DNA of 35,129 bases from Pseudomonadota bacterium (GTDB lineage: Bacteria; Desulfobacterota; Desulfobacteria; Desulfobacterales; ETH-SRB1). The stretch is taken from the NCBI GenBank assembly GCA_018897415.1, contig JAHIKR010000064.1:1-35129 (forward strand). Direction: 5' to 3'. Shown piece by piece: positions 1 through 30,595 of the stretch. Position 1 is the first letter of the stretch. Every line of letters starts with the position of its first letter. The notes under the pieces are model-generated. The model ran no database searches, was not told where the DNA came from, and worked only from the letters and a program-made list of their open reading frames with translations. The translations under genes were made by a program, and so were the position numbers.

Positions 1-11
1 TGAGCTGGCAT
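1..11 (-). CDS. 5' end (ATG plus 3 codons) of an unidentified divergently transcribed gene running off the left edge
   Basis: The reverse complement of 1-30 reads AGGAGG-aacaaacc-ATG CCA GCT CA. This is a canonical Shine-Dalgarno 8 nt upstream of an ATG (minus-strand ATG at 11..9). The product cannot be determined from 11 nt. Confidence 0.3.
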
Positions 12-168
12 GGTTTGTTCCTCCTGATAAAATAAATTTTAGTGTAACAGTAGTGACACACCATGTCAAATCTTATTTAACCGAGCACCACTTCGGGCGT
101 CTGGGTGCCCCTGTGAAATGCACTTTCTGCTTGACAGCCATCATTTTTAAAGGCAGCGTTTAAAAATA

Positions 169-3972: not shown

Positions 3973-4025
3973 GAAGGAGAGATTGGCTATTCGACACTTT
4001 ATGCAGGATTTAGTTTAGATAGATT

Positions 4026-4192
4026 GAGACCTTTGCAAAACGCCCCCTTTTGCCCAATTAGCGCTATAAAGCTTCACTAAAGTGCCTGTGTCAGACTCAA
4101 ATTTTAAGCCTCGAAATACTCAATGTATTCCTACAGTTAAAATTTTCGCCTTCCTTGAACTTGAACAAAATTGAGCATTTTTCAAAGGTCTC
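4026..4192 (+). mobile_element. MITE-like element A (167 bp): terminal inverted repeats GAGACCTTTG(C/A)AAAA and a 5-bp target-site duplication AGATT
   Basis: The ends gagacctttgcaaaa / ttttcaaaggtctc match at 14 of 15 positions as an inverted repeat. The flanking pentamers 4021-4025 and 4193-4197 are both AGATT. A near-identical copy lies inverted at 34796-34962. Confidence 0.85.
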
Positions 4193-4381
4193 AGATTATT
4201 ATACTTGACATTGGTTAAAATATATGTTCAATCTATGAACGTTTAGAAACTGAACACTTGAAGATGATTATTAATTCCCATAAATATCTTTACGTTAAGA
4301 CTTGTCGATTTCATGTAACCCACCAAGCGGAGCTATGCTCTATGTCTAAAAGTTAGCTCTAATTTCTCCCCATTAAATCTT

Positions 4382-5247: not shown

Positions 5248-6288
5248 ATGTTAAACGATAAAACAATTTTGATTACCGGGGGAACTGGGTCATTGGGGAA
5301 AAAAATGACCCACATTATTTTGGAGAATTATACACCTGAAAAGCTTATTATCTTCAGCAGGGATGAGCTTAAGCAGTTTGAGATGTCTCAAAGATGGAGT
5401 ATGAAAAAGTATCCATGTATCCGCTATTTTCTGGGTGATGTAAGGGATAAGGATAGGCTCATTAGAGCTTTTAATGGTGTTGATTATGTCATTCATGCTG
5501 CAGCGCTTAAACAGGTTCCTGCGGCTGAGTATAATCCTGCAGAATGTATTAAAACAAACATATATGGTGCAATGAATGTTATTGATGCTGCACTTTTTAA
5601 CAATGTAAAGAAAGTCGTGGCCTTATCCACTGATAAAGCCTGCAATCCTATTAACTTATATGGAGCAACAAAGTTATGTTCAGATAAATTGTTTGTTGCA
5701 GCCAATGTCTATAGAGGATTTGATAAGGAGACAAGTTTTGCTGTCGTACGTTATGGTAATGTGCTTGGTAGTCGTGGCTCAGTGGTTCCATTTTTTAAGG
5801 AACGTTCTAAGACAGGCGTGCTTCCTATTACTGACCCCGACATGACACGCTTTTGGATTACCCTTGACCAGGCAGCTCATTTTGTACTCAAGGTTTTAGA
5901 ATTAGCAAAAGGGGGAGAAATCTTCGTTCCCAAGATTCCTTCCATGAAAATTACAGATCTGGCCAAAGCAATAGCTCCCGAGTGTTCACATAAAACCGTA
6001 GGTATTCGTCCTGGCGAGAAAATTCATGAAACCCTTATCGGAGAAGATGAAGGACGTAATGCTATAGAATATAAAGATTGTTACGTAGTAAGACAAGACC
6101 ACTTTGATGCTGAGAAAAGGCTCGATATCAATAATGGCGGCCGATCATGTCCAAAAGGATTTAGATATAGATCAGATAATAATCCTGAAAGATTAAGTAT
6201 TGAAGAATTAAAACAGACCTTAGAGCAAATCTCTGATGACTATAGTATTGAAAAAACACGTTGGTCAATGGACGATATTCCGCAATAA
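5248..6288 (+). CDS. pseB: UDP-N-acetylglucosamine 4,6-dehydratase, PseB/FlaA1 type (short soluble CapD-like SDR)
   Basis: 346 aa with N-terminal KTILITGGTGSLGKK. The catalytic block LSTDKACNPINLYGATKLCSDKLF has a Tyr-containing YGATK rather than the CapE/FnlA Met variant. Also has RYGNVLGSRGSVVP. Confidence 0.8.
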   Translation: MLNDKTILITGGTGSLGKKMTHIILENYTPEKLIIFSRDELKQFEMSQRWSMKKYPCIRYFLGDVRDKDRLIRAFNGVDYVIHAAALKQVPAAEYNPAECIKTNIYGAMNVIDAALFNNVKKVVALSTDKACNPINLYGATKLCSDKLFVAANVYRGFDKETSFAVVRYGNVLGSRGSVVPFFKERSKTGVLPITDPDMTRFWITLDQAAHFVLKVLELAKGGEIFVPKIPSMKITDLAKAIAPECSHKTVGIRPGEKIHETLIGEDEGRNAIEYKDCYVVRQDHFDAEKRLDINNGGRSCPKGFRYRSDNNPERLSIEELKQTLEQISDDYSIEKTRWSMDDIPQ

Positions 6289-6377
6289 GGAAGTAGTTCT
6301 TAGATTATTGTACCATGATACAAAAATAAATATTCAATGAAAAGTAATAAAATAAAGCGGTTGCTCAGAGGTAACTA

Positions 6378-7694
6378 ATGAAAATAGCAAAAAGTTTGAA
6401 GATGCAGAAGCGGGCAAGAAACAGGATACCCGGCATGACCCAATTGCTGTCAAAGCGTCCCGACATGTTTTCTTCAGGAGCTTGGCCAGGATATTATAGC
6501 AGAGCAAAAGGAGTAGAGATATGGGATTTGGATGGTAATCGGTATATAGATATGAGCCTTTCGGGCATCGGTACATGTATTCTTGGCTATGCCGATCCGG
6601 ACGTAAATCGAGCTGTCAAAGCTGCAATTGACGCAGGTTCAATGTCCACTTTGAATTGTCCCGAAGAAGTAGAGCTAGCAGATCTTCTTTGTAAGTTACA
6701 TCCCTGGGCCGAAATGGCCCGCTTCGCCCGTACGGGAGGCGAGGCAATGGCAATTGCCGTAAGGATAGCTCGTGCATATACTGGTAAGGACAAAATTGCC
6801 TTTTGCGGCTACCACGGGTGGCATGACTGGTATTTGGCTGCTAATTTAGGTACTGAAAATGCTTTAGGGGAACACCTCCTGACAGGGTTGAATCCAACTG
6901 GAGTCCCCAAAGGTTTAACGGGCACAGCTATTCCATTTCGCTACAATCATCTTGAAGAACTGCAAGCTATAGTTGAGAAAAACAGAAAAGACATAGCTGC
7001 TATCATTATGGAACCCATTCGCAATGTCCAACCACAACCCGGTTTTCTGGAAGGGGTAAGAGCTTTAGCTGACGAGATAGGAGCAGTCTTTATCATTGAT
7101 GAAATATCTGCTGCATTCAGAATGAACTCAGGGGGGGCACATCTTGTTTTTGGTATTTTACCCGATGTTGCGGTATTTTCCAAAGCATTGGGGAATGGCT
7201 ATCCAATAGCAGCTATAATAGGGAAGAGCCAGGTCATGGAAGCTGCTCAAAGCACATTTATTAGTAGCACTATGTGGACGGAACGTATAGGCCCTGCCGC
7301 AGCCTTGGCTACCATCAAGAAACATAAAGCTGTTGATGCAGGCAAGCACCTTATGGCTGTCGGAAAACAGATACAAGAAGGATGGACTCGTCTGGCGAAA
7401 AAGAATAACTTGAAAATAGATATTGGCGGGATCCCGCCACTCAGCCATTTTTCTTTTGAATATGATAATGCGCTATCAATGAAGGCTTTATTTGTTCAAT
7501 TGATGCTTGAACTGGGTTTTTTGGCATCGAATCTTTTTTATGCAATGTATGCCCACACAGAAGACCATGTAAGAAGCTATCTTGAAGGAGTTGATAAATC
7601 ATTTGAAAAAATAGCGCGCTCAATTGAGCACAACGATATCGATAAAAAACTCATTGGAGAACCTTCCAGTATCGGCTTTAAAAGACTTGCATAA
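6378..7694 (+). CDS. Class-III PLP aminotransferase (glutamate-1-semialdehyde 2,1-aminomutase-like)
   Basis: 438 aa with motifs ARFARTGGEAMAIAVRIARAYTG, IIDEISAAFR and FSKALGNGYP (candidate PLP lysine). These are typical of the HemL-like class-III family. Confidence 0.8.
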   Translation: MKIAKSLKMQKRARNRIPGMTQLLSKRPDMFSSGAWPGYYSRAKGVEIWDLDGNRYIDMSLSGIGTCILGYADPDVNRAVKAAIDAGSMSTLNCPEEVELADLLCKLHPWAEMARFARTGGEAMAIAVRIARAYTGKDKIAFCGYHGWHDWYLAANLGTENALGEHLLTGLNPTGVPKGLTGTAIPFRYNHLEELQAIVEKNRKDIAAIIMEPIRNVQPQPGFLEGVRALADEIGAVFIIDEISAAFRMNSGGAHLVFGILPDVAVFSKALGNGYPIAAIIGKSQVMEAAQSTFISSTMWTERIGPAAALATIKKHKAVDAGKHLMAVGKQIQEGWTRLAKKNNLKIDIGGIPPLSHFSFEYDNALSMKALFVQLMLELGFLASNLFYAMYAHTEDHVRSYLEGVDKSFEKIARSIEHNDIDKKLIGEPSSIGFKRLA

Positions 7695-7825
7695 CATGTT
7701 ATCATAAAAACTGATAAAAAAATCAAACCGATGCCAGAGAAAACTTTTATAATCAAAATTATTGAAAATGTTTTATCTGACGAGGAGTGGGTAACCCTTG
7801 TTGATGCCCTTAAGGCGATTTTGCA

Positions 7826-8146
7826 ATGGACAAAAAAAGCAAAGATTTGATGGATTTTATTTCCGGGGCTATTGATCACTTAGATGTGAGCGGCTTTGAA
7901 GCGCTTGAAATTCTGGATGTTCGTAGTCGTCTTGCATCAAGGGAGCCTCTTCTTGATGAGCAGGACAGGGCGCGTCTGGAAAGATTGGACCGCCAGTTGC
8001 TGCAAATGGCAGATTCTCTAATAGAATGTATCTCAGAAGTTGCGAATCTGGCAGAAATGCGGAGAAGAGCACATATTCTTCCATCTCATTGGTGGTGGTA
8101 TCTGGATGGAATTACTTCTGACAACCGCAAGGTCGCCGAAGGATAG
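7826..8146 (+). CDS. Hypothetical protein (contains the SHWWWYLD motif)
   Basis: 106-aa ORF with protein-like composition. No family was recognised. An upstream overlapping 39-codon ORF (7731-7850) would fuse to it with +1 A in the A7 tract at 7832-7838. Confidence 0.4.
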   Translation: MDKKSKDLMDFISGAIDHLDVSGFEALEILDVRSRLASREPLLDEQDRARLERLDRQLLQMADSLIECISEVANLAEMRRRAHILPSHWWWYLDGITSDNRKVAEG

Positions 8147-8173
8147 CAGCTATGCTCCAAGCTCTTGCCTCTT

Positions 8174-8203
8174 CACTTAAAACTTAATCACTTAAAACTA
8201 AAA
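8174..8203 (+). repeat. Two units of the 15-bp motif CACTTAAAACTTAAT
   Basis: cacttaaaacttaat cacttaaaactaaaa. The same unit is tandemly repeated at 9000-9059, and the surrounding sequence (8161-8218) is also homologous to 8986-9075. Confidence 0.8.
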
Positions 8204-8296
8204 ACTATGCTTTCTTCCGGTAGGCTGAGGGTCAAAAAATGGAAATTAGTCTGAAAGCGTGTTGCAAGTCATATTTGCAAATGATAAACGGGATTT

Positions 8297-8608
8297 GTGA
8301 TGAAGGAAGTTAAGTTTACAGTAATGCTGACGCGAGAGGACAGATACCGCCACCACCATGTACGATTTAGAAAAGACGTTCTCAGTTTTGTCGTACAATA
8401 TGAGACAAAGGTGGAAGAAAAATGGCTTCCAGTCGTAAGATATGATACAAGGCATGGCTTTGCTCATCGGGATCTTTTGGATAAAAAGGGCGAAAAACAA
8501 AAGACGCCTATTCTTGCCGAAGACTACAGCGAGGCCCTGACATTTGCTGAATACGATATCAAATCTAATTGGAAAATGTACAAACAGCATTTCATGGTAG
8601 GAGGTTAG
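8297..8608 (+). CDS. Small hypothetical protein, first gene of a tightly coupled pair
   Basis: 103-aa ORF whose stop lies 1 nt before the next ATG. The motif VVRYDTRHGFAHRD is faintly reminiscent of the RYDN..HH motif of TumE/DUF6516-type toxins; this is unverified. Confidence 0.55.
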   Translation: MMKEVKFTVMLTREDRYRHHHVRFRKDVLSFVVQYETKVEEKWLPVVRYDTRHGFAHRDLLDKKGEKQKTPILAEDYSEALTFAEYDIKSNWKMYKQHFMVGG

Positions 8609-8609
8609 C

Positions 8610-8903
8610 ATGGAGACACGAGAAAACGAGTTCTTTACCAGGAATTCCGAATTAAGTATGGAGTTCAGCAAATATGTTTTGGAACATCCCGAGATGGACG
8701 ACCTGCTGACAGAAGAAGCGGTAGTTGTGTTCCTGCCAGAATTTGATGCAGAACTGGCGGATTTCAACTCAAGAATGGCAAAGGAAATTGAAGGTGAAGG
8801 CGGCAGGGTGCTTTATGTGAAGGTGAAACAGATGGCCCCGAAGATCTTTTCCAGGCTGATGGGGGTTGAAGTTGGAGTTGCACGGTCACAACTTGAACAT
8901 TGA
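8610..8903 (+). CDS. Small acidic hypothetical protein, second gene of the coupled pair
   Basis: 97-aa ORF starting 1 nt after the stop of the previous ORF, which implies translational coupling. No family was recognised with confidence. Confidence 0.55.
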   Translation: METRENEFFTRNSELSMEFSKYVLEHPEMDDLLTEEAVVVFLPEFDAELADFNSRMAKEIEGEGGRVLYVKVKQMAPKIFSRLMGVEVGVARSQLEH

Positions 8904-8999
8904 GTACTGGTTCCATGATCTTTCACGGCTTACCGCAGATTTCTGTGCGGAAGCATCTTTTTGCTTCCAAGGCTGGATGTCTTTGGCTCTCTTCCTCTT

Positions 9000-9059
9000 G
9001 CCTTAAAACTTAATCACTTAAAACTTAATCACTTAAAACTTAATCACTTAAAACTTAAC
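9000..9059 (+). repeat. Tandem repeat, 4 x 15 bp (CACTTAAAACTTAAT), ending 3 nt before the aldo/keto reductase ATG
   Basis: gccttaaaacttaat / cacttaaaacttaat / cacttaaaacttaat / cacttaaaacttaac, read directly from the sequence. Confidence 0.9.
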
Positions 9060-9062
9060 ACT

Positions 9063-9956
9063 ATGTTCTTTCCTCATCTTGTCTTAGGCACAGCGCAACT
9101 TGGTCTTCCCTATGGCTTAGCCAACAAGGTAGGGCAACCTGACCAGGCTGTTGCAATTACTATAATCCGTGAAGCTTGGAAAAATGGGATTAGGGAATTT
9201 GATACAGCTCAGGCATATGGGGACAGCGAAAAGGTTTTGGGGAAGGCTCTTTACGAATTGGGCATATCAAGCGAAGCAAAAATCATAACTAAATTCCATC
9301 CGAATTTGGATCATCTGAACGCTTCAGATATGTCGAGAGCCTTGGATGAATCTCTCGAAAGGCTTAGGGTCCGAAGTCTTTATGGTATTATGCTGCACAG
9401 GGAGGAAATGCTTTCCTTATGGAATAAAGGTTTAGCGAAAATTCTTCATGCCTTTATTTTGTCCGGTAGAGTTGAAAAAATAGGTATCTCCGTCTATTCA
9501 CCAGATAAAGCTATACAGGCTTTAAACACCGAAGGTATCAGTATGGTTCAACTTCCGACCAATATCGTGGATAGAAGATTTGAAAATACAGGCGTATTTA
9601 AGCTATCAGATGAAAAGAAAAAACAGATTTACATCAGAAGCGTTTTTCTTCAGGGGCTGCTACTAATGAATCCGGAAGAAATTTCGGATAAAATGTCATT
9701 TGTCAGGCCAATAATTAAAGAAATACAAACGATTTCAAATAATATTGGATTGTCACAGCAGGAAATAGCGCTGGGTTACGTGAAATCAGAGATGCCAAAC
9801 GCTCATGTGGTTTTTGGCGCAGAATCTTCTGAGCAGGTAAAGAGCAATATAGCCTGTTGGAGAAAAAACATTCAACAGAATCTGGTTGATATGATTAAAC
9901 GTAAATTTGATGATATTGACGAAGTTATTTTGAATCCTAATTTATGGCCAAAATGA
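9063..9956 (+). CDS. Aldo/keto reductase
   Basis: From the ATG at 9063 the protein reads MFFPHLVLGTAQLGLPYG...REFDTAQAYGDSEKVLGKAL, a typical AKR N-terminus. The ORF-track start at 8961 (TTG) would translate the 15-bp tandem repeat and is unlikely. Confidence 0.8.
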   Translation: MFFPHLVLGTAQLGLPYGLANKVGQPDQAVAITIIREAWKNGIREFDTAQAYGDSEKVLGKALYELGISSEAKIITKFHPNLDHLNASDMSRALDESLERLRVRSLYGIMLHREEMLSLWNKGLAKILHAFILSGRVEKIGISVYSPDKAIQALNTEGISMVQLPTNIVDRRFENTGVFKLSDEKKKQIYIRSVFLQGLLLMNPEEISDKMSFVRPIIKEIQTISNNIGLSQQEIALGYVKSEMPNAHVVFGAESSEQVKSNIACWRKNIQQNLVDMIKRKFDDIDEVILNPNLWPK

Positions 9957-10735
9957 TGAATATTGTTGCAATACTTCAAGCTAGGATGGGATCATCACGC
10001 CTGCCTGGGAAAGTGCTAAAGCCGATACTCGGCCGCCCAATGTTGGAACATCATATAGAGCGGATAAAACTGAGCAGTAAAATTAACCGAATAGTTGTCG
10101 CCACCAGCATTGATCCAGCGGATCAAGCAATTGTTGATCTCTGCCGGCAGATAGGAATAGAATCTTTTGAAGGTGAACTTGAAAATGTCCTAGATCGTTT
10201 TTACCAAGCAGCAAGACTATACAAATCGGATCATGTGGTTCGCTTGACCGGTGATTGTCCATTGGCTGATCCACATTTAATAGACGAATTAATTGATTTT
10301 TACTTCGTTCAGAAATGTGATTATGCCAGCAATTGTTATGAACCAACTCTGCCTGACGGGCTTGACGCCGAAGTTTTCTCCTTTGCAGTTCTGGAACAGG
10401 TATGGAAGGAAGCCGTGTTGCCATCCCATCTGGAACATGTTACCCCTTTTATTTACATGCATCCGGAAAGGTTTAAAATAAAGAGCCATAAGTATCATAC
10501 AGATTTATCACATCTCAGGTGGACGGTTGATGAATATGAGGATCTGGAATTTGTTAGGCGGATATATGAAATACTTTATCCTGTAAAACCAGATTTTTCG
10601 ATGAAAGATATTCTTCTCCTTCTTGAAAAAAATCCAGAACTTGCGGAAATCAACAGGCGTTTTAAAAGAAATGAGGGTGCGAAGAAGTCGATTGAAAAGG
10701 ATAAGCAATTTCTTGCGCAAAAGCACAGCCATTAG
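9944..10735 (+). CDS. SpsF-type cytidylyltransferase (CTP_transf_3 family; candidate CMP-nonulosonate synthetase)
   Basis: N-terminal AILQARMGSSRLPGKVLKPILGRPML, plus RLTGDCPL and a LRWTVDEYEDLEF tail. The start may be ATG 9944, 9953 or 9956, and it overlaps the AKR stop (9954-9956). Confidence 0.75.
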   Translation: MAKMMNIVAILQARMGSSRLPGKVLKPILGRPMLEHHIERIKLSSKINRIVVATSIDPADQAIVDLCRQIGIESFEGELENVLDRFYQAARLYKSDHVVRLTGDCPLADPHLIDELIDFYFVQKCDYASNCYEPTLPDGLDAEVFSFAVLEQVWKEAVLPSHLEHVTPFIYMHPERFKIKSHKYHTDLSHLRWTVDEYEDLEFVRRIYEILYPVKPDFSMKDILLLLEKNPELAEINRRFKRNEGAKKSIEKDKQFLAQKHSH

Positions 10736-10759
10736 TATTGATCAAAATGGAGATTGAAT

Positions 10760-12871
10760 ATGGAAAGAGAAAAAATTACTATATATCTTGCAGAATTGGC
10801 TCACAATGGTTTTGGACTTAGCTTGAATACCATTCCCTTGGGTATAGGAAGTGTTGGAGCCTACAGCAAAAATAAATATGGTAATCAAATTGAAATACGT
10901 TTGTTCAGACAATTTGAAGACTTAATGAATGCTATATCAGATTTGCCGCCACATATTGTTGGCTTAGGATATTTTACATGGAATGACAATTTGACGCTTG
11001 CGGCCTTAAAATGTGTGAGGGAAATCAGTCCCGATACCCTGATTGTTCTCGGTGGCCTCAACATAACTATTAAAGGGTGGGAGAACACAACAAATAACGT
11101 TACCTCTAAAAAAAGGAAACCTTGTGATGAATACGCAAGAAAATATGATTTTACACTGCTTAATAATAATGCAGATATCGATATTATTGTACATGGAGAT
11201 GGGGAGGTTCCCTTTTCAAACATTATAGAAAAAATGATGGATTCCGCAAATCGATTACAAGTAAAAAGCCAGCCTATCGATGGGTGTACTACATTAGTTG
11301 ATGGAAATTTACTTGCAGGCAAAGTGGTTTCACCTTTGCTTGACCTGGATGTTATACCTTCTCCTTATATAATGGGCTTATATGCTGAATTGTTTGAACG
11401 ATATCAGTTAGTCCCTCAAGTTGAGTCTGTAAGGGGATGTCCTTACAATTGCACCTACTGTACGATTGGCGGAAATATTAATAAGCTGAGAAAACATAGT
11501 TTAGAATATATTAAGGAGGAGATCTTATTTCTTAAAGACAACAGCCCTAACAGAATTTTAAGAATAGCGGATTCAAATTGGGGTATTCTGAAAAGAGATG
11601 TCGAGTTGGCCGAGTTTATCAGGGAATTACATAATTCCACTGGCTACCCAAGTTCATTGAGAGTCTATTACGCAGAAAAAGGCCCTTTTGAAAATGTAAG
11701 AAGAATGGCGAAGACACTGAAGACTTTGCTGCCTTTGAATATGAGCTTCCAGACCTTAACAAAGGAAGTTTTGAAAAATGTTAAAAGACAAAACATGCCG
11801 ATTTCTAAGGTTAAGGAAATGGTTAAATTTGCTCATAGCAATAATATATCCGTTTCTACTGAACTTATTTCTGGACTACCAGGAGAAACATATCAGTCTT
11901 TCAGGGATGTATTCTTGGAAACCGTAAAGCTCAACTTTGATAGCGTTTATGTTGGCACCCTTTATTTAACAAAGGGTGCAGAATTATATACGGATAGAGC
12001 TAGGAAACAGTACGGTTTGAAGACAAAATATGTACTTCTCGGCAATAATATTACAAAACTTAATTCTCGTTATGTCATTGACGCAGATGAAGTTGTGACC
12101 GAGTCAAATAGAATATCTCTGAACGATTTTTGGGGACTTCATAAGTTCAATTTTTTTATTTTTTCATGTTATGGTGCAGCGTTCTTGAAAGAGATCATTA
12201 TGCACTGTATCAATTATCAGATAACGCCATTAGACCTATATGATGAATTATGTGAAAGGCCTGATTGTTACCCGTTTTTTAACGAAATCGCCGACAAATA
12301 CATGACAACTGTGAAAACAAAATACTTTGACACGAGAGAAGAACTTGAGGAAGCGGTATCAAAAACTATTAAGAAAAATGGTAATATTAATGAATTCAGC
12401 GTATATAGGCAGTGTTTTTATCGCCTTGGAAGGATTGCTAGTAGCCGATACAAACATTTATTTATCTCTGATTTTGTAAAATCTGCACGCTCAATTTATG
12501 ATAAAAATAGAAACAAGAATGAAGATGATAAATTTCACTCCATTCTGGATATGCTTGGTGATTTAGCAATAGATGTAATAATTTCGCCCCTGGAAGAAGT
12601 AAAAAAGGAAATTGTAAGATCATATAACTATGATTTAATAACATGGGCAAAGGACGATTATAAAAAACCTTTATCGGGATATAATTTAAAAAAAACAAGA
12701 AGGTTTTCGCTATGCGTCAGAAATATAAATGAGCATAGAGAATTATCTAATAAGACAAAAGGTTGGGGTGACTTAGAAAAATATGCATTTTATTTTACAA
12801 CTGTTGTTTCATCTAATATGAGGCGCTTAATTAAATATACTCATCGCGAAGACAGCGCCATCATTGAATAG
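10760..12871 (+). CDS. B12-binding-domain radical SAM enzyme (class B-like), large 700-aa form
   Basis: CxxxCxxC cluster RGCPYNCTYC with a preceding cobalamin-binding-like Rossmann region (IVGLGYFTW...LIVLGG). The ATG at 10760 follows GGAGA (10749-10753); the ORF track begins at TTG 10754. The gene is visibly more AT-rich than its neighbours. Confidence 0.8.
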   Translation: MEREKITIYLAELAHNGFGLSLNTIPLGIGSVGAYSKNKYGNQIEIRLFRQFEDLMNAISDLPPHIVGLGYFTWNDNLTLAALKCVREISPDTLIVLGGLNITIKGWENTTNNVTSKKRKPCDEYARKYDFTLLNNNADIDIIVHGDGEVPFSNIIEKMMDSANRLQVKSQPIDGCTTLVDGNLLAGKVVSPLLDLDVIPSPYIMGLYAELFERYQLVPQVESVRGCPYNCTYCTIGGNINKLRKHSLEYIKEEILFLKDNSPNRILRIADSNWGILKRDVELAEFIRELHNSTGYPSSLRVYYAEKGPFENVRRMAKTLKTLLPLNMSFQTLTKEVLKNVKRQNMPISKVKEMVKFAHSNNISVSTELISGLPGETYQSFRDVFLETVKLNFDSVYVGTLYLTKGAELYTDRARKQYGLKTKYVLLGNNITKLNSRYVIDADEVVTESNRISLNDFWGLHKFNFFIFSCYGAAFLKEIIMHCINYQITPLDLYDELCERPDCYPFFNEIADKYMTTVKTKYFDTREELEEAVSKTIKKNGNINEFSVYRQCFYRLGRIASSRYKHLFISDFVKSARSIYDKNRNKNEDDKFHSILDMLGDLAIDVIISPLEEVKKEIVRSYNYDLITWAKDDYKKPLSGYNLKKTRRFSLCVRNINEHRELSNKTKGWGDLEKYAFYFTTVVSSNMRRLIKYTHREDSAIIE

Positions 12872-12907
12872 CTGGATTTAGATTACATAAAATGCAAGCA
12901 AATTTAA

Positions 12908-13216
12908 TCATCCGCACATGATCAAGGAAAGAATCGACATCGAAGTGAGCTCTGCACGCTTTATATGTGCGAAAATCCGAAAAAGTTTTATCTTCAACGT
13001 CTTCATCCGGAATCGTCTAAGGTCCAGAGGCCTGATATTCGCTTAACCGTAGATTATCCGGAGGATTTAATCGTTGCACGAGAGGTTTATGAATTTCTTA
13101 AAAAACCGGGCGAATACATTAATGTTGCAGACATTATTGATTATATGGATGCCTATCCAAAATTGAAAGAATTGAACGGATGGATTGACGCCGGTATAGG
13201 AAGAATATGGAATTAG
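12908..13216 (+). pseudogene. C-terminal fragment of a second SpsF-type cytidylyltransferase
   Basis: The open frame reads ...SELCTLYMCENPKKFYLQRLHPESSKVQRPDIRLTVDYPEDLIVAREVYEFL. This parallels SHLEHVTPFIYMHPERFKIKSHKYHTDLSHLRWTVDEYEDLEFVRRIYEIL of the intact gene at 9944-10735. The N-terminal two thirds are absent. Confidence 0.65.
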
Positions 13217-13388
13217 AAGAAACAGTTATGACATGCAAGTATATTCTGAAAGACCAGGTAGAAGATGCAATCACTTAAGTATACCACATTAAGATACTCC
13301 ATCTGAACATTTCAAGAACTGATTTGTCAGTTCATAAATACACTTTCAGTGAAAAGATAAGCAATAATAATATTCAGGAAGGGTCATC

Positions 13389-15155
13389 ATGAATTTTAGC
13401 ACTTTTAACATGCATTTCAAAATTAACATGCGTTTCAAAAGATGGGTTAGAAAGTGGATACTCAGCGAGCATCTGTTTCGGAAGATTAGGCTTTATCGTT
13501 ACGACAAACTCCAGAAATTCTGGTTAGGCCACCCCCCGGTACCTGCACCTCCCTTCGAGACAAGCTATTTTAGAAAAGCAAATTTAGACCCACGTGTGGT
13601 TCGTCGTCTGGATGATTATCGATCCGCTGTAGTTGTAACAGGAAAAACCGAATTGCCTATTGAGAAGCGGAACGGAAAATCGTCAATTCAATTTGCAATA
13701 AGTCCGGCAAGAGATTGGGTTCCCGATAAGTTAGTTCGTTTTAAAATTGGTGGACACGAAACTCTTATTCGAGAAATACCGGTGGATCGGTGGTTCGATG
13801 TGCGCTTGGATCTTGAGGATGAAGACAAAACGTTGATTGTTGAACCAGATGCACCGGTTGAAATAACTATGCCGAGGCTCGTAAAAAATCCTATTCTGGA
13901 AAAGAATAGAAAGGAGATACGCCATATAGTCGTTTGCGTACTGGATGCATGGTCAACGGCCACTGTAAATGAAAAACATCCTATGACAGGGGAAAATAGC
14001 TTGACGCCTAATATAGATCGTTTTTTTTCGCAAGGCTTGTGTGCAAGAAAGGGTATATCAAGCGGGCAATGGACGTTGCCGGCTGTTGGTACTCTGTTCA
14101 CCGGGTTGCATGTTTCGCGTCATAAAATGACACATCCATGGCGCTGGCAGGAATTTGATCGTAATCGTCGAACATTGCCTGAATATTTTCAACATGCCGG
14201 TTATCATACCTTGTGTGGGTCCGTTGTGTCGCGGGTTACACCCGCATTTGGTCACAATCGGGGCTTTGATCGCTTCCTGTATCATTTTCCGGGATTTTCA
14301 TACCAGACTTATGATCCCGCTGTCTGGATACAGGAAATTATCGGTCATATGGAGGCACATTATGGAGATCGGACGTTCAGCTATTTCCAGTTTCCTGATA
14401 CCCATCCCTCGTGGGACATTGCCCCCGAAACGAGATATTTTCATTTATGCCGTCGTGGAAACACGTCGTCAAATCTTAAACAGTTGATGACATCAAAGGC
14501 TTCGAAAATTTTTGACATACCTAACCAAGCTCAACAATTATATTCTTTAAGACTCGCTGAGATCGACAGGATGCTTGGCTGCATTTTTGATTATGTAGAA
14601 AGAAAATTCGAAGAAGAAGCCCTTATCGTTGTGACAGCAGATCATGGTATGCGAATGCCGTATATGAGCGAAGCCCATCAAAACGATGAACCTTTCCTGA
14701 CAGATATTCGAGTTAATATCCCTCTATTCATGCGTGGTCTCGGCGTTCCCGTATGCTCTTATGACGGATTATGTCCGCCAAATCTTGATCTGCCTTTAAC
14801 TCTCTTAAATCTGGCAGGTCTAAAACCGGACTTAGATGATTTTGACGGTACAAACGTCCTGGATCGGATCAGTCTCCAAAAAGAATGTGTTATAAGTGAA
14901 TATGTTTACGCAGGAATCTACGAACTTGCAGTTAGAGGCTATGGCCACGCATTATTTTTAAAATTCGAGATCGACGACAAAGCATATAAGATTCTTTCAA
15001 GAGAACCGATATACATAGGACTATATTCGCTTAATACAGCTTCATACGGGAAAGATAACGATTTAATAAACGAAAAACCTGATGTTTTCGAAACTCTTCG
15101 CAAGGTTGCAATTGATCATATTAACAACATAGGTCTGATGGAGAATATCGGATGA
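13389..15155 (+). CDS. Alkaline-phosphatase-superfamily enzyme (phosphodiesterase/NPP- or sulfatase-like) with an N-terminal extension of about 170 aa
   Basis: Metal-site-like VCVLDAWS. The nucleophile region is QWTLPAVGTLFTG (T-x-P, not the C/S-x-P-x-R of FGly sulfatases). VVTADHGM is also present. RBS AGGAAGG. The stop overlaps the next gene's start (ATGA). Confidence 0.7.
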   Translation: MNFSTFNMHFKINMRFKRWVRKWILSEHLFRKIRLYRYDKLQKFWLGHPPVPAPPFETSYFRKANLDPRVVRRLDDYRSAVVVTGKTELPIEKRNGKSSIQFAISPARDWVPDKLVRFKIGGHETLIREIPVDRWFDVRLDLEDEDKTLIVEPDAPVEITMPRLVKNPILEKNRKEIRHIVVCVLDAWSTATVNEKHPMTGENSLTPNIDRFFSQGLCARKGISSGQWTLPAVGTLFTGLHVSRHKMTHPWRWQEFDRNRRTLPEYFQHAGYHTLCGSVVSRVTPAFGHNRGFDRFLYHFPGFSYQTYDPAVWIQEIIGHMEAHYGDRTFSYFQFPDTHPSWDIAPETRYFHLCRRGNTSSNLKQLMTSKASKIFDIPNQAQQLYSLRLAEIDRMLGCIFDYVERKFEEEALIVVTADHGMRMPYMSEAHQNDEPFLTDIRVNIPLFMRGLGVPVCSYDGLCPPNLDLPLTLLNLAGLKPDLDDFDGTNVLDRISLQKECVISEYVYAGIYELAVRGYGHALFLKFEIDDKAYKILSREPIYIGLYSLNTASYGKDNDLINEKPDVFETLRKVAIDHINNIGLMENIG

Positions 15156-15739
15156 CGAAAAATATAGTTCTTCGACCCCTTGCGCAAGAGGATGTCAGCC
15201 AAGCTTATGTAGATTGGCTCAATGATCCTGAAATTTATCATTACCTTGGCATAAGACATAGAAACCGTAATTTTACAAAAGAGGATATCCAGTCATTTCT
15301 CAATGACTGTCTTGCGAATTGTCGATTTCACTGGGGCATATTTTTGAATAATCGGCATGTTGGTAATGTTTCATGTTCTGCATGGAGTAACGAAAATCAT
15401 TGGATCGATGTATCGTATATTATAGGAGACAAAAGCATATGGGGTCGGAGTGTGGCAACCCTTTCGGTTGGCGCTGTTATTGACTATCTTTTTTCGGTCC
15501 ACCACTATCATAAGGTGCAGGCACATTCGACAGTTGATAATTTGGCTTCAATAAAAGTAATGAAAAAACTTGGAATGCGTCAGGATGCCGTACTCCGTGA
15601 GAATGCTTATTTTCCAAATCGGAAACGCTATTCTGATGAAGTAATATATAGTGTTCTTTGCAGAGAATGGGACCCGAAAGTAATTGATATAGATAATGTT
15701 CGGGTTTTTCCGATGCCGTGGGAGAAAGATATTACATGA
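15152..15739 (+). CDS. GNAT-family N-acetyltransferase (RimJ/RimL-like)
   Basis: IVLRPLAQEDVSQAYVDWLNDPEIYHYL N-terminus and a GNAT core (WGRSVATLSVGAVIDYLF...VMKKLGM). ATGA overlaps on both sides. Confidence 0.75.
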   Translation: MTKNIVLRPLAQEDVSQAYVDWLNDPEIYHYLGIRHRNRNFTKEDIQSFLNDCLANCRFHWGIFLNNRHVGNVSCSAWSNENHWIDVSYIIGDKSIWGRSVATLSVGAVIDYLFSVHHYHKVQAHSTVDNLASIKVMKKLGMRQDAVLRENAYFPNRKRYSDEVIYSVLCREWDPKVIDIDNVRVFPMPWEKDIT

Positions 15740-16671
15740 AAGTCGTTATTGCTGGAGTGAGTGGTCTCCTTGGAAGTAATCTGGTCATGACCATGAGGGG
15801 CAAATTCGATACTGTCGGGACATATAATCAAAATAAAATAGGTTTTGATGGTATTTGTATGGAGAACATGGACATTACTTCGGGTGAAGAAGTTAACAGT
15901 ACTATCTTGAGCGCTATGCCAGATATTTTAATCCATTGTGCTGCTGAAACTCGAGTTGATCATTGCGAGGAGTATCCTGGAGACGCCTTCCGTGTTAATG
16001 TTGAAGGTACATCAAACTTAGCTCTTGCAAGTGCCAAGGCAGGTGCAAAAATGATTTATATTTCCACGGATTCTGTATTTGATGGTCTAAAGGGGAACTA
16101 CAGCGAAAAAGACGAGACAAATCCCGTAAATGTTTACGCTCAGACAAAACTTGAGGGAGAAAAAGCCGTAAAAAAATACTGCGATAATTATCTGATCCTC
16201 CGAACCAATATTTACGGTTGGAACGCAAGGTCAAAATCGAGTTTAGCCGAATGGGTTCTAAATCGTTTGAAAAGCGGTGATCGAAAAATTCCTGGCTTCG
16301 GGGATGTTTTTTTTTCACCCATGTTAGTTAATGATCTGGCTCATATTATTGAAAAGATGATAGGAGCTGATTTGCGGGGGCTGTTTCACGTCGGAGCAAG
16401 CGATAAGTGCAGCAAACTCGATTTTGCCAGAATGATCTGCAGGGTCTTTGATGAAAACTCAAGGCGTGTAGTCCCGAGCAATTCGGATACTATTAATTTC
16501 AGAGCTCGCCGTCCCAAAGATACTTCTCTGAATGTTACGAAGGTTACTCTCGAATTGGAAAATGCAATGCCTACTGTTGTAGAAGGATTAAGACATTTTC
16601 GAGAGCTCTTGGATAGTGGTTACGTTGATCAACTGAAGGCGATTGTGATGAATCAGGAGGTTTCATTATGA
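15736..16671 (+). CDS. RmlD-like NAD(P)-dependent sugar 4-ketoreductase (SDR)
   Basis: From the ATG at 15736 it reads MKVVIAGVSGLLGSNL. It also has YISTDSVFDG and YAQTKLEGE (YxxxK). The ORF-track start 15718 lies inside the GNAT gene. There is an ATGA overlap with the GNAT stop. Confidence 0.75.
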   Translation: MKVVIAGVSGLLGSNLVMTMRGKFDTVGTYNQNKIGFDGICMENMDITSGEEVNSTILSAMPDILIHCAAETRVDHCEEYPGDAFRVNVEGTSNLALASAKAGAKMIYISTDSVFDGLKGNYSEKDETNPVNVYAQTKLEGEKAVKKYCDNYLILRTNIYGWNARSKSSLAEWVLNRLKSGDRKIPGFGDVFFSPMLVNDLAHIIEKMIGADLRGLFHVGASDKCSKLDFARMICRVFDENSRRVVPSNSDTINFRARRPKDTSLNVTKVTLELENAMPTVVEGLRHFRELLDSGYVDQLKAIVMNQEVSL

Positions 16672-17744
16672 ATAAAATGCATATCGCCGATCGCTCAATT
16701 GGAGATGGAGAGCCCACTTATTTCATAGCAGATATTGCGGCCAATCACGATGGGAGTCTGGATAGGGCCAAAAAATTGATCTGTCTGGCAAAGGAAGCCG
16801 GGGCAGATGCAGTAAAATTTCAAAATTTCGAAGCCAGGAAAATAGTCAGCAAACAGGGATTTGAATCGCTGGGTGGTCAAGCATCTCATCAGACTAAGTG
16901 GAAGAAGTCTGTCTTCGAAGTTTATGAGGATGCTTCCATTCCCTCCTCGTGGACTGTAAAACTCTGTGAGTTTTGTAAAGATACGGGGATTCATTATTTT
17001 TCTTCTCCCTATGACTTTGAAGCTGTGGATATGTTAGAACCATTTGTGCCGGCTTATAAGATCGGTTCGGGGGACATTACTTGGCCGGAAATGCTTCGAA
17101 AGATTTCAGCTAAAGGCAAGCCGGTTCTTTTAGCTACGGGAGCTTCGGATATAAATGAAGTGCGTGACGCGGTAAATATCATAAAATGTATCAATCCAAA
17201 TTTGGTTTTGATGCAGTGTAATACAAATTATACGGGGAGCCTGGAAAACTTCAGATACATTAATTTAAATGTTCTTAAAACCTTTAAAGACAAGTTCCCA
17301 GATGTAGTATTGGGTTTATCGGATCATACCCTTGGATATGTAACAGTATTGGGGGCTGTTGCATTGGGGGGGCGGGTAATAGAAAAACATTTCACTGACG
17401 ACATGAGTCGAGAAGGACCGGACCATGTTTTTTCAATGATACCTGAGGCATGGGCAGAAATGGTGCTACGTACACGAGAACTTGAAGATGCACTCGGGGG
17501 AAAGGAAAAGCGGGTGGAAGATAATGAACAGGAAACCGTGATCCTGCAGAGACGATGTCTGCGCGCGAAACAAAATCTGAAAATTGGAACAATTCTTACC
17601 AGACACTTGATTGATGTTTTAAGACCGGCACCGAGAGATGCTATTTCCCCTTATGATGTTGATCGGATGATCGGAATGCGGTTAATGGTTGATTTGCCGG
17701 AAGGCGAATATTTTAAATGGTCATATTTAGAAACGGTAAATTAA
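16668..17744 (+). CDS. NeuB-family nonulosonic acid synthase (PseI/LegI/NeuB/SpsE type)
   Basis: YFIADIAANHDGSLDRAKKLICLAKEAGADAVKFQ, a GLSDHT motif, and a C-terminal SAF-like domain. ATGA overlap with the upstream reductase. Confidence 0.85.
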   Translation: MNKMHIADRSIGDGEPTYFIADIAANHDGSLDRAKKLICLAKEAGADAVKFQNFEARKIVSKQGFESLGGQASHQTKWKKSVFEVYEDASIPSSWTVKLCEFCKDTGIHYFSSPYDFEAVDMLEPFVPAYKIGSGDITWPEMLRKISAKGKPVLLATGASDINEVRDAVNIIKCINPNLVLMQCNTNYTGSLENFRYINLNVLKTFKDKFPDVVLGLSDHTLGYVTVLGAVALGGRVIEKHFTDDMSREGPDHVFSMIPEAWAEMVLRTRELEDALGGKEKRVEDNEQETVILQRRCLRAKQNLKIGTILTRHLIDVLRPAPRDAISPYDVDRMIGMRLMVDLPEGEYFKWSYLETVN

Positions 17745-17747
17745 TCT

Positions 17748-18872
17748 ATGCGAGTCCTCTATTTCAGCAGAGATTATACGACCCACGATAGGCGCTTTCT
17801 TCAAAAACTGGCCCAATCTCGACACGAAATATTTTTTTTACGGTTAGAAAATGACAGTATTGATTATGAATCGCGTCTACTGCCGGATAATATTAATGTG
17901 GTAGAATGGAGTGGTGGGCGCGGACAAGTCAAAACGCAGGAGGAGTGCTTGCGTTTAATGCCTGATTTTTCAGCCGTTCTCGAACAAATTAAGCCCGATC
18001 TCATTCATGCCGGTCCTGTTCAATCCTGTGGATTCATGACTGCTATGAGCGGATTTCATCCTTTTCTTGTGATGTCCTGGGGATCCGATATATTGCTGGA
18101 TGCTGATAGAAATGAATTCTGGCGTTGGATAACAAAATATACTCTCGATCGGTCGGATTTTCTCTTTTGTGACTGCACGGCAGTTAGAAACAAGGTGAAA
18201 GAAATATCAAATTATTCAGGCAAGGCAATCCTTCAGTATTCATGGGGTGTCGATATAAAAGAATTTTCTCCAGGTCCGGATAACTCGAATTTTAAAGATT
18301 CTTTACAGTGGAGCGAGAACTGTATTGTTTTGTCGACCCGGAACTGGGAGCCAATATATGGAATGGATGTGCTCCTCAGGGCTTTTCACAAAGCCTATAC
18401 GAAAAATTCAAACCTCAGGCTTGTCTTATTGGGAAACGGTTCTCAGGAAAATGCAATTTGTAATTTTGTCAAAAAGCATGAACTCGATCATGCCGTTTTT
18501 CTGCCGGGTATATTATCCCACGCTAAACTGCCAGACATCTTCAGGGCTTCGGATGTATATTTAAGCTGTTCGTTCAGTGATGGTTCATCCGTATCACTCT
18601 TAGAGGCGATGGCTACGGGACTTCCTGTCATCGTAACAGACGGAGCTGGCAACAGGGAATGGGTTGTCCCAGGCCAAAATGGATGGTTGGCCCCGCCGGG
18701 CGATTTCGAAACATTTTCTGAATTTTTATATCAAGCTTCAATAATGTCGCACGAGGAACGAGAAAGCATAAGGCAGACGAATCGTAATATCATTGAGAGA
18801 TCAGCTGATTGGAATAAAAATGCATCCAAGCTTTTGGAATTGTATGAAAGAATCGAATCTCAATTTATCTGA
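17748..18872 (+). CDS. Glycosyltransferase, GT4-like (GT-B, Glycos_transf_1)
   Basis: C-terminal E-x7-E region SFSDGSSVSLLEAMATGLPVIVTDGAGNREWV. Starts 3 nt after the NeuB-type gene. Confidence 0.8.
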   Translation: MRVLYFSRDYTTHDRRFLQKLAQSRHEIFFLRLENDSIDYESRLLPDNINVVEWSGGRGQVKTQEECLRLMPDFSAVLEQIKPDLIHAGPVQSCGFMTAMSGFHPFLVMSWGSDILLDADRNEFWRWITKYTLDRSDFLFCDCTAVRNKVKEISNYSGKAILQYSWGVDIKEFSPGPDNSNFKDSLQWSENCIVLSTRNWEPIYGMDVLLRAFHKAYTKNSNLRLVLLGNGSQENAICNFVKKHELDHAVFLPGILSHAKLPDIFRASDVYLSCSFSDGSSVSLLEAMATGLPVIVTDGAGNREWVVPGQNGWLAPPGDFETFSEFLYQASIMSHEERESIRQTNRNIIERSADWNKNASKLLELYERIESQFI

Positions 18873-25437: not shown

Positions 25438-25492
25438 CAAAAATAGGCAATATCAACAGTTTTTAAGAAGAACTAACTATAGGTTAATAACT

Positions 25493-28703: not shown

Positions 28704-28712
28704 GGAGAAGAC

Positions 28713-29570: not shown

Positions 29571-29618
29571 TTGCATTTTAAATAAACCATAACGCAGAGA
29601 ACTAGTCGAAGGAGAAAA

Positions 29619-30389: not shown

Positions 30390-30595
30390 ACAAAAAAATA
30401 TTTGTAGCCTTATCAACTTTTGCTGAGTATGGGGATGACCCGTTAAAACTTCTTGAAGAAAGCGGGTTAGAGTATTCTTTGAACTCCTTGGGCCGTCGGA
30501 TTGTCCGGGAGGAAATCATCGAGATGGGCAAAGACGCGACCTGGATTGTTGCTGGAGTTGAGCCTTACAATACCCATATGAGGAGGTATATTTAA
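30386..30595 (+). pseudogene. N-terminal fragment (about 60 aa) of a D-isomer-specific 2-hydroxyacid dehydrogenase (phosphoglycerate-dehydrogenase-like)
   Basis: KIFVALSTFAEYGDDPLKLLEESGLEYSLNSLGRRIVREEIIEMGKDATWIVAGVEPYN fits the N-terminal substrate-binding lobe of this family. The frame then ends after THMRRYI, and the NAD domain is absent. ATGA overlap with the kdsB stop. Confidence 0.5.

Follow-up and report, generated by a model that had tools for sequence, protein, structure and literature searches.

Introduction

Nonulosonic acids (NulOs) occur on flagella, capsules, lipopolysaccharides and surface layers (S-layers), and shape immune and phage recognition. To our knowledge, the enzymatically understood routes to these sugars are the Neu, Leg and Pse routes only. 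The canonical route to cytidine monophosphate (CMP)-activated pseudaminic acid in Campylobacter and Helicobacter uses six enzymes, PseB, PseC, PseH, PseG, PseI and PseF. Here we analyze a NulO gene region (positions 5248–18872) on a contig of 35,129 nucleotides from a metagenome-assembled genome (MAG) of a Pseudomonadota bacterium (assembly GCA_018897415.1, contig JAHIKR010000064.1; the whole contig is referred to as the window). The region resembles the canonical Pse pathway in its start with a bona fide PseB, its NeuB-family synthase and its CMP-activating enzyme, and the ancestral form of one of its cassettes, seen in related loci (L007, L009 and L012), had a true PseC. It differs in that the window is without PseC and PseG, its NeuB falls under the PseI cutoff, its cytidylyltransferase is of the SpsF type and not PseF, and its GNAT acetyltransferase has no match to PseH. 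In addition, the window carries an RmlD-like reductase, an aldo/keto reductase (AKR), a class-III aminotransferase that resembles HemL, and a glycosyltransferase family 4 (GT4) protein, here called GT4c.

Several described systems share parts of this gene set. In the pathways to uridine diphosphate (UDP)-activated 2-acetamido-2,6-dideoxy-L-hexoses (FnlA/B/C, WbjB/C/D and WbvB/R/D), WbvR is an RmlD homologue that acts on the UDP-4-keto-6-deoxy-L form of N-acetylhexosamine (HexNAc). These pathways and our locus both combine a UDP-N-acetylglucosamine (UDP-GlcNAc) 4,6-dehydratase/5-epimerase with a subsequent RmlD-type 4-ketoreductase; by contrast, the dehydratase in the window is PseB, a 2-epimerase is missing, and the reductase is coupled to NeuB, which presumably makes the 6-deoxy-HexNAc an intermediate on the way to a NulO rather than the final product. 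In the C-6' amination of gentamicin, the partners are the dehydrogenase GenQ, the class-III aminotransferase GenB1 and the B12-dependent radical S-adenosylmethionine (SAM) C-methylase GenK, and a comparable amination logic is found in WbpB/WbpE/WbpD. GenQ and GenB1, a dehydrogenase and a HemL-like class-III aminotransferase, turn a sugar side-chain alcohol into an amine; their substrates differ from those expected here, and pairs of the type found in the window are tied, and sometimes fused, to a cytidylyltransferase, so the resemblance serves as a lead.

Trideoxy fusaminic acid carries a 5-acetimidoyl group. Fusaminic acid of Fusobacterium nucleatum has been described as a trideoxy NulO together with a 5,7-diamino tetradeoxy form, in the L-gluco series (PMC7371886). 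The product predicted from PseB, a 4-reductase and NeuB would likewise be 9-deoxy, 7-hydroxy and 5-acylamino, a likeness that leaves stereochemistry aside. A literature search on 'fusaminic' alone found no paper on its biosynthetic genes. In Bacillus subtilis, spsF is needed for the transfer of legionaminic acid but not for its synthesis (PMC7439481). The B. subtilis sps pathway shares with our locus an SpsF-type cytidylyltransferase in place of NeuA, PseF or LegF, but it contains SpsC (DegT) and SpsG (PseG-like) and is without AKR or HemL-like partners. By analogy, the locus could be regarded as a hybrid, with the front of a 2-acetamido-2,6-dideoxy-L-hexose pathway, a back end of NeuB and CMP activation, and an amination module like GenQ/GenB1 or WbpB/WbpE/WbpD.

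With moderate confidence, we read the region as a mosaic, assembled by recombination from two NulO cassettes with a single PseB in common, in which the HemL-like aminotransferase belongs to a portable module and does not substitute for PseC.

Results

Absence of PseC and PseG, and a deletion scar

Genes were called with Pfam and NCBIfam models, applying equivalog cutoffs, and statements of absence refer to the window, a single 35-kb MAG contig. All of its 29 large open reading frames (ORFs) lie on the plus strand and together form a single surface-polysaccharide locus; the same gene arrangement is carried by the MAG assembly GCA_018897055.1. Fetched loci of relatives are denoted by L-numbers (L001, L007, L174 and so on). 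A previous sequence-only reading of the window had listed genes for PseB, a HemL-like protein, an AKR, an SpsF-type protein, a GNAT, an RmlD-like protein and NeuB, and all were indeed present and intact. It was also right that the class-III HemL-like protein is the sole pyridoxal phosphate (PLP)-dependent aminotransferase (Pfam and six-frame searches), and that no DegT or PseG homologue is found in the window. No window protein matched PF01041 (DegT). All six frames were searched with PseC- and PseG-like proteins of relatives (tblastn, E ≤ 1) and with purpose-built hidden Markov models (HMMs; E ≤ 10), revealing no similarity to DegT, PseG-like, AP_endonuc_2 or GFO/IDH/MocA (GFO) proteins in any window frame, and the PseG-like proteins of L003 and L004 (80–131 bits on TIGR03590) likewise had no match there. 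Thus the window is without the canonical route, as proposed: PseB was recognized, and the other five of its six enzymes were not.

The left flank of the window, with genes for a PglF-like dehydratase, a helix-turn-helix (HTH) protein and PseB, is matched by L007, L009 and L010, and the window PseB is 94–95% identical in amino acid sequence to those of L007 and L009. Between pseB and the hemL-like gene these three relatives carry a gene of 706–719 amino acids (aa) in which an RmlD-like domain is fused to a DegT domain; on the PseC model TIGR03588 (cutoff 423.5), a fusion of the same kind in L003 reaches 503 bits and the DegT gene of L006 reaches 495 bits. In the window, the spacer between pseB and hemL measures about 90 nt, versus a fusion gene of about 2.1 kb in the relatives. 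Two remnants of the fusion gene make up this spacer: on the 5' side its leader and first 12–13 nt (ATGAAAAGTAAT, from 6337), and on the 3' side its last ~30 nt. They meet at an AATGAAA/AATAAAA microhomology (6346–6352), and a mini-ORF of 13 codons remains (MKSNKIKRLLRGN). BLAST alignment placed window 5209–6352 on L007 6714–7857 and window 6346–7555 on L007 9969–11181. The identical scar was present in three other fetched contigs, L001, L002 and L011, which come from one metagenome assembly and two MAG assemblies. Between 4907 and about 7000, L011 matches the window at 100% identity; the two then diverge inside hemL through recombination, and the downstream region of L011 differs.

These alignments indicate that PseC was lost by a clean deletion of about 2.1 kb, which removed the rmlD-pseC fusion gene between pseB and the hemL-like gene. 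The deletion is recent, because its flanks are 100% identical in L001, L002 and L011. The earlier claim on DegT therefore stands as to its absence, but not as to its meaning, since the absence reflects a recent secondary loss with a scar and not an ancestral design; the HemL-like/AKR pair is therefore possibly a leftover.

Further breakpoints were found downstream. Nucleotide similarity of the AKR gene to those of L007 and L009 stops at about 9823–9838, some 120 nt before the stop codon, and the 3' end of the gene is therefore taken to be recombinant. The cytidylyltransferase remnant beyond the SpsF gene is 75% identical in amino acid sequence to residues 149–248 of the L007 CTP_transf_3 protein (tblastn; 73.6% by blastn) and marks a gene replacement event; an ORF of 83 aa without a family (12965–13216) falls within it. 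The right-hand block has 65–70% nucleotide identity to L174 and L176, and the synteny of the sulfatase-like gene is kept in L174. To judge from these comparisons, the order sulfatase-like, GNAT, RmlD-like, NeuB, GT4c and AsnB-like represents an old syntenic block. Short non-coding stretches of the window (1–151, 1356–1419, 4024–4341, 33261–33469 and 34796–34962) are 83–98% identical to stretches of L007 and L009, and some are inverted (window 33261–33469 versus L009 6061–5851). Such repeated intergenic elements across related polysaccharide loci may mediate the recombination seen here.

Two cassettes can be proposed from this pattern. Cassette 1, the ancestral Pse-type one, would have comprised PseB, the RmlD-like~PseC fusion, the HemL-like protein, the AKR, a NeuB and a cytidylyltransferase; in the window it would have lost the fusion gene, its NeuB and the 5' part of the cytidylyltransferase gene, and gained the SpsF and B12-radical-SAM genes. 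Cassette 2 is intact, with the cytosolic sulfatase-family protein, the GNAT, the RmlD-like reductase, NeuB, GT4c and the AsnB-like protein.

The HemL-like/AKR/SpsF module in other genomes

The HemL-like protein of the window is below the cutoffs of all five HemL-type models (TIGR00713, 206.9 bits versus 527.3), and most of the fetched loci of relatives have the gene in the midst of NulO genes; the protein is thus not a housekeeping HemL, in agreement with the sequence-only reading. Its Schiff-base lysine (in SKALGNG) has the same alignment position as the GK(I/V)IGGG lysine in glutamate-1-semialdehyde aminomutase (GSAM), and aminoglycoside C-6' aminotransferases are among its relatives in the PDB. 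It is 81–90% identical to the HemL-like proteins of L007, L009, L011 and L012. More than 8000 homologues were found, the best 120 of which have 72–100% identity and come from several phyla. Relatives occur in at least 570 species, including Leptospira adleri, Halovenus rubra, Methanoregula, Sulfurimonas and Asaia.

To examine the genomic context, 80 genome loci with HemL-like genes from a species-representative genome collection were annotated with purpose-built HMMs. In Phycisphaerales, Chloroflexi and Thermodesulfovibrionia the order is PseB, PseC, HemL-like, AKR, SpsF, a PseG-like or AP_endonuc_2 protein and NeuB, with PseC often fused behind an RmlD-like domain, and most of the annotated loci with enough flanking sequence repeat this PseC-containing picture. 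The HemL-like gene was found beside a real PseC in 51 of 87 typed loci. In the three relatives tested, the PseC proteins beside it score 495–503 bits against the TIGR03588 cutoff of 423.5, and unannotated proteins of 340–370 aa in module loci match the PseG model at 80–131 bits. The trio thus normally occurs together with PseC and a PseG-like gene.

The composition of the trio was variable in a consistent manner. SpsF-HemL fusions occur in Desulfobacterium N47 and Leptospira, AKR-SpsF fusions are also present, and a second survey, seeded with NeuB, contained triple fusions of GFO, SpsF and aminotransferase. A GFO oxidoreductase lies upstream of SpsF in 9 of 10 AKR-less loci tested, and a DegT-like aminotransferase fills the HemL slot in L097 and L154. 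The module can thus be described as an oxidoreductase, SpsF, an aminotransferase and a GNAT. The window has all four, and several of the best matches of its GNAT adjoin AKR, SpsF or HemL genes (L032, L067, L018, L042 and L044); the HemL-like gene is set apart by an insertion of 1.3 kb, so that the trio is interrupted here. In sum, these contexts indicate that HemL-like/AKR/SpsF, found in at least 570 species and carried by a Leptospira adleri genome, is an accessory module that supplements a Pse-type pathway, and that it replaces neither PseC nor PseG.

Since unrelated enzymes can occupy the oxidoreductase slot as well as the aminotransferase slot, and since the parts are fused to the cytidylyltransferase, the module pattern argues for one chemistry, in which a hydroxyl would be oxidized, transaminated and N-acetylated on a sugar activated by SpsF. 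The most likely role of the module is to replace a hydroxyl on the NulO side chain by an amino or acetylamino group. We favor C8 as the aminated position, for several reasons. C7 already bears nitrogen in Pse-type loci. The HemL-like proteins of loci with PseC (Pse-type, here type A) and of loci with PseB, RmlD-like, NeuB, GT4c and SpsF but without PseC and a PseG-like gene (type B) are intermixed: in a nearest-neighbor comparison those of type-B loci form no separate group, and their nearest neighbors include type-A loci, at 61–68% identity, which suggests that the enzyme recognizes a portion of the sugar that both types share. Moreover, CH3-CH(OH)- is the motif aminated by GenQ and GenB1 in gentamicin biosynthesis. 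Finally, 8-amino-3,5,7,8,9-pentadeoxy-manno-nonulosonic acid occurs in the O-antigen of Tenacibaculum (Flexibacter) maritimum (PMC3210612). A Pse front end combined with the module would be expected to yield just such a Pse-type NulO with an extra side-chain amine, but the likeness is at the level of the product and not of the genes, and the window, lacking PseC, would give a 7-hydroxyl instead of a 7-acylamino group.

These data also bear on the proposal, made in the sequence-only reading, that the HemL-like enzyme takes the role of PseC and aminates the 4-keto product of PseB, or a later intermediate, at the future C7 to give a 5,7-diamino NulO. The enzyme is the only PLP aminotransferase in the window, a few loci have a HemL-like gene without a strong PseC, and the coexistence of 5,7-diamino tetradeoxy and trideoxy fusaminic acid in F. 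nucleatum (PMC7371886) would fit a late conversion of 7-OH to 7-NH2. However, in most of the surveyed loci a bona fide PseC accompanies the HemL-like protein, including HemL-like proteins that are 81–90% identical to the one of the window, and the type-B proteins are not set apart from them. The coupling and fusion to a cytidylyltransferase and a dehydrogenase, rather than to PseB, would also be unneeded for a 4-keto nucleotide-sugar substrate. We consider this explanation improbable.

Literature searches aimed at the trio or at the type-B cassette found no functional study but only mentions in gene tables. Gene types identical to those of the module appear in the gene table of the Legionella pneumophila serogroup 6/12 O-antigen (PMC3694923), and an SpsF-AKR fusion is listed for a Pse cluster of Vibrio (PMC7371886). 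Mapping the stereochemistry of 4-epi-legionaminic acid of Legionella onto a Pse-type front end plus the module gave no consistent route.

Other features of the surveyed loci were also recorded. An RmlD-like short-chain dehydrogenase/reductase (SDR) is fused to a bona fide PseC in L003, L004, L007, L009 and L012 (about 700–720 aa) and also in L006, L014, L030, L031 and L033. L007 and L009 have two NeuB genes each and may make two NulOs from one PseB. B12-radical-SAM genes recur in L011, L014, L028, L031, L059, L071 and L079, and in L014, L028 and L059 they lie directly among the NulO genes. For Magnetospirillum, a 2026 preprint (10.64898/2026.04.20.719630) reports ulosonic acids with ten carbons that are CMP-activated; speculatively, one way to such acids would be for a B12-radical-SAM enzyme to C-methylate a NulO chain.

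The type-B cassette

The window NeuB is only 24–36% identical to the NeuB proteins of HemL-type relatives, and it scores below both equivalog cutoffs (277.5 bits versus 399.65 for NeuB, 243.6 versus 340.25 for PseI). It belongs to a clade with at least 595 metagenome matches, the best 80 of which are 60–72% identical to it, and this clade is distinct from the NeuB and PseI equivalogs. The neighborhoods of 19 clade members with at least 6 kb on each side of NeuB showed a uniform arrangement: an RmlD-like gene directly upstream of NeuB (17/19), PseB upstream (18/19), a GT4 gene directly downstream (18/19), SpsF (17/19) and GFO (14/19). A strong PseC and a HemL-like gene were found in two loci each, and a PseG-like gene in none. 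The PseB proteins of type-B loci pass the PseB cutoff, with 496 and 531 bits. Among 72 NeuB-containing loci of at least 14 kb, GT4c (24 loci) and PseG-like or AP_endonuc_2 genes (31 loci) did not overlap, and standalone RmlD-like genes (27 loci) and PseC (33 loci) overlapped once. The HemL-like-seeded and NeuB-seeded surveys are different queries, and their counts describe alternatives and not population frequencies. The window holds all five type-B genes without PseC and a PseG-like gene, in dispersed and not contiguous order. Comparative evidence thus supports the view that the type-B cassette is a widespread front end that works without PseC and PseG, in line with the sequence-only reading, which had suggested a 7-hydroxy 9-deoxy NulO made by way of an RmlD-like 4-ketoreductase.

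It could be supposed instead that canonical pseC and pseG, or leg genes, elsewhere in the genome act in trans and give ordinary pseudaminic acid. The window is a single MAG contig of 35 kb, and the relatives L007 and L009 have two NeuB genes and long clusters. On the other hand, the window NeuB fails the PseI cutoff, the neighborhoods of its clade almost never contain PseC or PseG, and the fusion gene once present in the locus was deleted and not moved. Such complementation therefore seems rather unlikely.

The sequence-only reading had found no recognizable PseG-type function, and it missed GT4c, a conserved candidate that starts 3 nt after NeuB, beyond the part that it had covered. GT4c has a GT-B fold and a Glycos_transf_1 domain, with an invariant D-x7-E motif replacing the E-x7-E of GT4 enzymes. 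Its best 119 homologues, which include proteins of Verrucomicrobiota and Methanoperedenaceae, are 49–69% identical to it, a conservation that is unusually high for a polysaccharide glycosyltransferase; the N-domain is conserved more than the C-domain. In a fold search with an AlphaFold2 (AF2) model (predicted local distance difference test, pLDDT, 93.8), the best matches were BshA and MshA, which are UDP-GlcNAc enzymes with small acceptors; sucrose-phosphate synthase and other GT4 proteins were also returned, and PseG was not in the top 50. A UDP-sugar-based NulO pathway needs a step that releases the sugar, and GT4c is the sole conserved candidate and excludes PseG-like genes; we infer that it is a candidate UDP-sugar hydrolase and a functional analogue of PseG.

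The sulfatase-family protein would be a second, weaker candidate for UDP-sugar cleavage, with a faint match to nucleotide pyrophosphatases (Phosphodiest). A role of this protein as a membrane transferase of the LtaS/EptA type was ruled out, as it has no hydrophobic or predicted transmembrane segments and is therefore cytosolic. In other clusters (L006, L007, L011, L029, L030 and L059) an AP_endonuc_2 protein, a xylose-isomerase-like TIM barrel, occupies the PseG-like position, and the fetched stretches of these six loci showed no PseG-like gene; L006 also has a metallophosphoesterase gene. The UDP-release step thus seems to have several non-homologous solutions.

Proposed pathway and state of the module

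In the proposed pathway, PseB would convert UDP-GlcNAc to UDP-2-acetamido-2,6-dideoxy-L-arabino-hexos-4-ulose, as assigned at the family level, and the RmlD-like enzyme would reduce C4, with WbvR as a precedent. GT4c would then release UDP, as its synteny and its mutual exclusion with PseG-like genes suggest. NeuB would condense the free 6-deoxy-HexNAc with phosphoenolpyruvate (PEP) to give a 5-acetamido-3,5,9-trideoxy NulO with a 7-hydroxyl, and SpsF would make the CMP-sugar, by analogy with B. subtilis. If active, the AKR, the HemL-like enzyme and the GNAT could in addition turn a side-chain hydroxyl into an acetamido group.

Whether HemL-like and AKR still act here or are left over from cassette 1 appears about evenly balanced. 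If they were non-functional passengers that have not yet decayed, the product would be a 7-hydroxy 9-deoxy NulO with additions by the GNAT, the AsnB-like and the sulfatase-like proteins, a reading as a whole to which we give somewhat less than an even chance. It agrees with the recent date of the deletion, as judged from the identical flanks in L001, L002 and L011, and with the loss or truncation of the cassette 1 partners NeuB1 and cytidylyltransferase. The insertion separates HemL from AKR, other states of erosion are seen in L011 and L174, and most type-B loci have no aminotransferase, HemL being present in only 2 of 19. By contrast, neither ORF is disrupted, the HemL-like protein retains its PLP lysine, and after the recombination at its 3' end the AKR gene is still in frame and still coupled to SpsF through ATGA. 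The window also has the complete module set (oxidoreductase, SpsF, aminotransferase and a module-type GNAT), and the combination of a type-B cassette with the module is found in unrelated lineages as well (L046, L089, L112, L127, L096 and L133), with PseB-RmlD-NeuB-GT4c-GFO-SpsF-HemL contiguous in L046.

Several points weigh against the reading of the region as two cassettes served by a portable module. Since the deletion is recent, purifying selection on HemL-like and AKR after the loss of PseC is not demonstrable. The coupling of hemL to AKR is interrupted by the 1.3-kb insertion, and cassette 1 is eroded elsewhere, with a NeuB fragment in L011 and an AKR without HemL in L174. By its fold, GT4c looks like an ordinary retaining GT4 and could be a transferase rather than a hydrolase. 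In the RmlD-like~PseC fusion two activities would compete for one 4-keto substrate, an arrangement for which this reading does not account. A pseC and a pseG could also lie elsewhere in the genome. Beyond the family level all of the chemistry is deduced from sequence, including the stereochemistry, the aminated position and the role of GT4c.

Gene content and neighboring genes

The features of the region are collected in Table 1. On the FnlA model the window PseB scores 246 bits (cutoff 730). The AKR starts at ATG 9063 (297 aa, matching relatives) and not at TTG 8961, and counted from residue 38 it is 75–78% identical in amino acid sequence to the AKRs of L007 and L009. The SpsF-type protein matches PDB 6oew ('cytidylyltransferase', E 6e-42), is 39–47% identical to SpsF of L003, L004 and L006, and scores 31.2 bits on the PseF model (cutoff 205.7). 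The window GNAT had no match to PseH (TIGR03585) at E ≤ 1e-3. The RmlD-like SDR, which starts at ATG 15736, retains the GxxGxxG and YxxxK motifs. It is below the RmlD equivalog (TIGR01214, 206.4 bits versus 224.05), families RmlA, RmlB and RmlC are absent from the window (Pfam), and the gene sits between GNAT and NeuB; by these signs it is not RmlD proper. The ATGA overlaps noted in the sequence-only reading were present at AKR/SpsF (9953), GNAT/RmlD-like (15736) and RmlD-like/NeuB (16668), and a further one at sulfatase-like/GNAT (15152). The sulfatase-like gene is translationally coupled to GNAT-RmlD-NeuB. The AsnB-like protein, which travels with the RmlD-NeuB-GT4c block, is possibly an amidotransferase for a tailoring step, and as a PP-loop enzyme it could make a 5-acetimidoyl-type group. 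The B12-radical-SAM protein next to SpsF is also a possible tailoring enzyme; it has four weak relatives among the fetched loci, versus 12 for a second such protein at 30601–31995.

Table 1. Features of the NulO gene region, in window coordinates
Feature	Position	Strand	Family or basis	Remark
PseB, inverting UDP-GlcNAc 4,6-dehydratase	5248..6288	+	TIGR03589, 499.9 bits (cutoff 407.75)	First step, common to both proposed cassettes
Deletion scar of rmlD-pseC fusion gene	6289..6377	+	Alignment with L007/L009	
HemL-like class-III PLP aminotransferase	6378..7694	+	PF00202, 153.9 bits	
Insertion of 1.3 kb between hemL-like and AKR	7695..9062	+		5-nt gap in relatives
ORF without family	7826-8146	+	Pfam	Inside insertion
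DUF7718 ORF	8297-8608	+	Pfam	Inside insertion
DUF5647 ORF	8610-8903	+	Pfam	Inside insertion
AKR	9063..9956	+	PF00248	Oxidoreductase slot of accessory module
SpsF-type cytidylyltransferase	9953..10735	+	PF02348	Presumed CMP-NulO synthetase
B12-binding radical-SAM protein, KedN5-type C-methyltransferase-like	10754..12871	+	PF04055/PF02310; NF033712, 150 bits, below cutoff	
Cytidylyltransferase remnant, L007/L174-type	12914..13215	+	tblastn, blastn	C-terminal 100 codons
Alkaline-phosphatase-superfamily ('Sulfatase') protein, 588 aa	13389..15155	+	PF00884/PF01663	Heads the right-hand block
GNAT N-acetyltransferase	15152..15739	+	PF13302	
RmlD-like SDR	15736..16671	+	PF04321, 201 bits	Presumed 4-ketoreductase on PseB product
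NeuB-family NulO synthase	16668..17744	+	PF03102 and SAF	
GT4c, GT4-fold protein	17748..18872	+		
AsnB-like (asparagine-synthase-like, PP-loop) protein	18900..20822	+	PF00733	Syntenic in L174, L176 and L094

Direct repeats flank the DUF7718/DUF5647 pair in the insertion, namely an array of the 7-bp unit ACTTAAA at 8175–8206 and a 15-bp unit (CTTAAAACTTAATCA) repeated 4.1 times at 9002–9062 (Tandem Repeats Finder, TRF), both of which terminate in ...ACTATG. The two proteins are possibly a toxin-antitoxin-like pair. At the same junction L012 holds a different pair, UPF0175 and DUF3368, and the hemL-AKR junction therefore looks like an insertion hot spot.

Further downstream, window 28314–31995 encodes a bona fide KdsA (360 bits, cutoff 242) and KdsB (262.8 bits, cutoff 255), with a CBS-pair protein upstream and the second B12-radical-SAM enzyme downstream. 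The locus would therefore also make CMP-activated 3-deoxy-D-manno-octulosonic acid (Kdo) or a modified octulosonic acid. Window 24418–26056 encodes a pyruvate kinase (PK) barrel-only protein (339 aa, under all PK cutoffs) followed by an adenosine 5'-phosphosulfate (APS)-kinase-like protein; in the syntenic relative L174 (15238–17499) PUA_2, ATP-sulfurylase and a PK domain are joined in one fusion, and the L117 cluster contains a sulfotransferase. These genes suggest a unit for sulfate activation to 3'-phosphoadenosine 5'-phosphosulfate (PAPS), with a PK-like domain, inside a polysaccharide locus.

Discussion

The locus itself is a mosaic, freshly deleted and somewhat damaged example, and the general biology that it exposes is of more interest. 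Its scar serves as a caution that the absence of a pathway gene may be a recent accident rather than design. Both the type-B cassette and the accessory module are widespread, and the literature searched contains no functional description of either. If the proposed role of GT4c is correct, the type-B cassette would be a fourth type of NulO front end and would include a UDP-sugar hydrolase of a new kind.

More tentatively, both parts may hold together: fusaminic-type 7-hydroxy-9-deoxy NulOs would be made by way of an RmlD-like reductase, a GT4-derived hydrolase and a distinct NeuB, and a portable module would add a side-chain acetamido group, probably at C8. If so, the 8-amino NulO of Tenacibaculum would be explained, and the product of the window would be a not-yet-described 5,8-diacylamino-7-hydroxy NulO. 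Once settled, the enzymes of cassette and module would sharpen the prediction of NulO structures from genomes.

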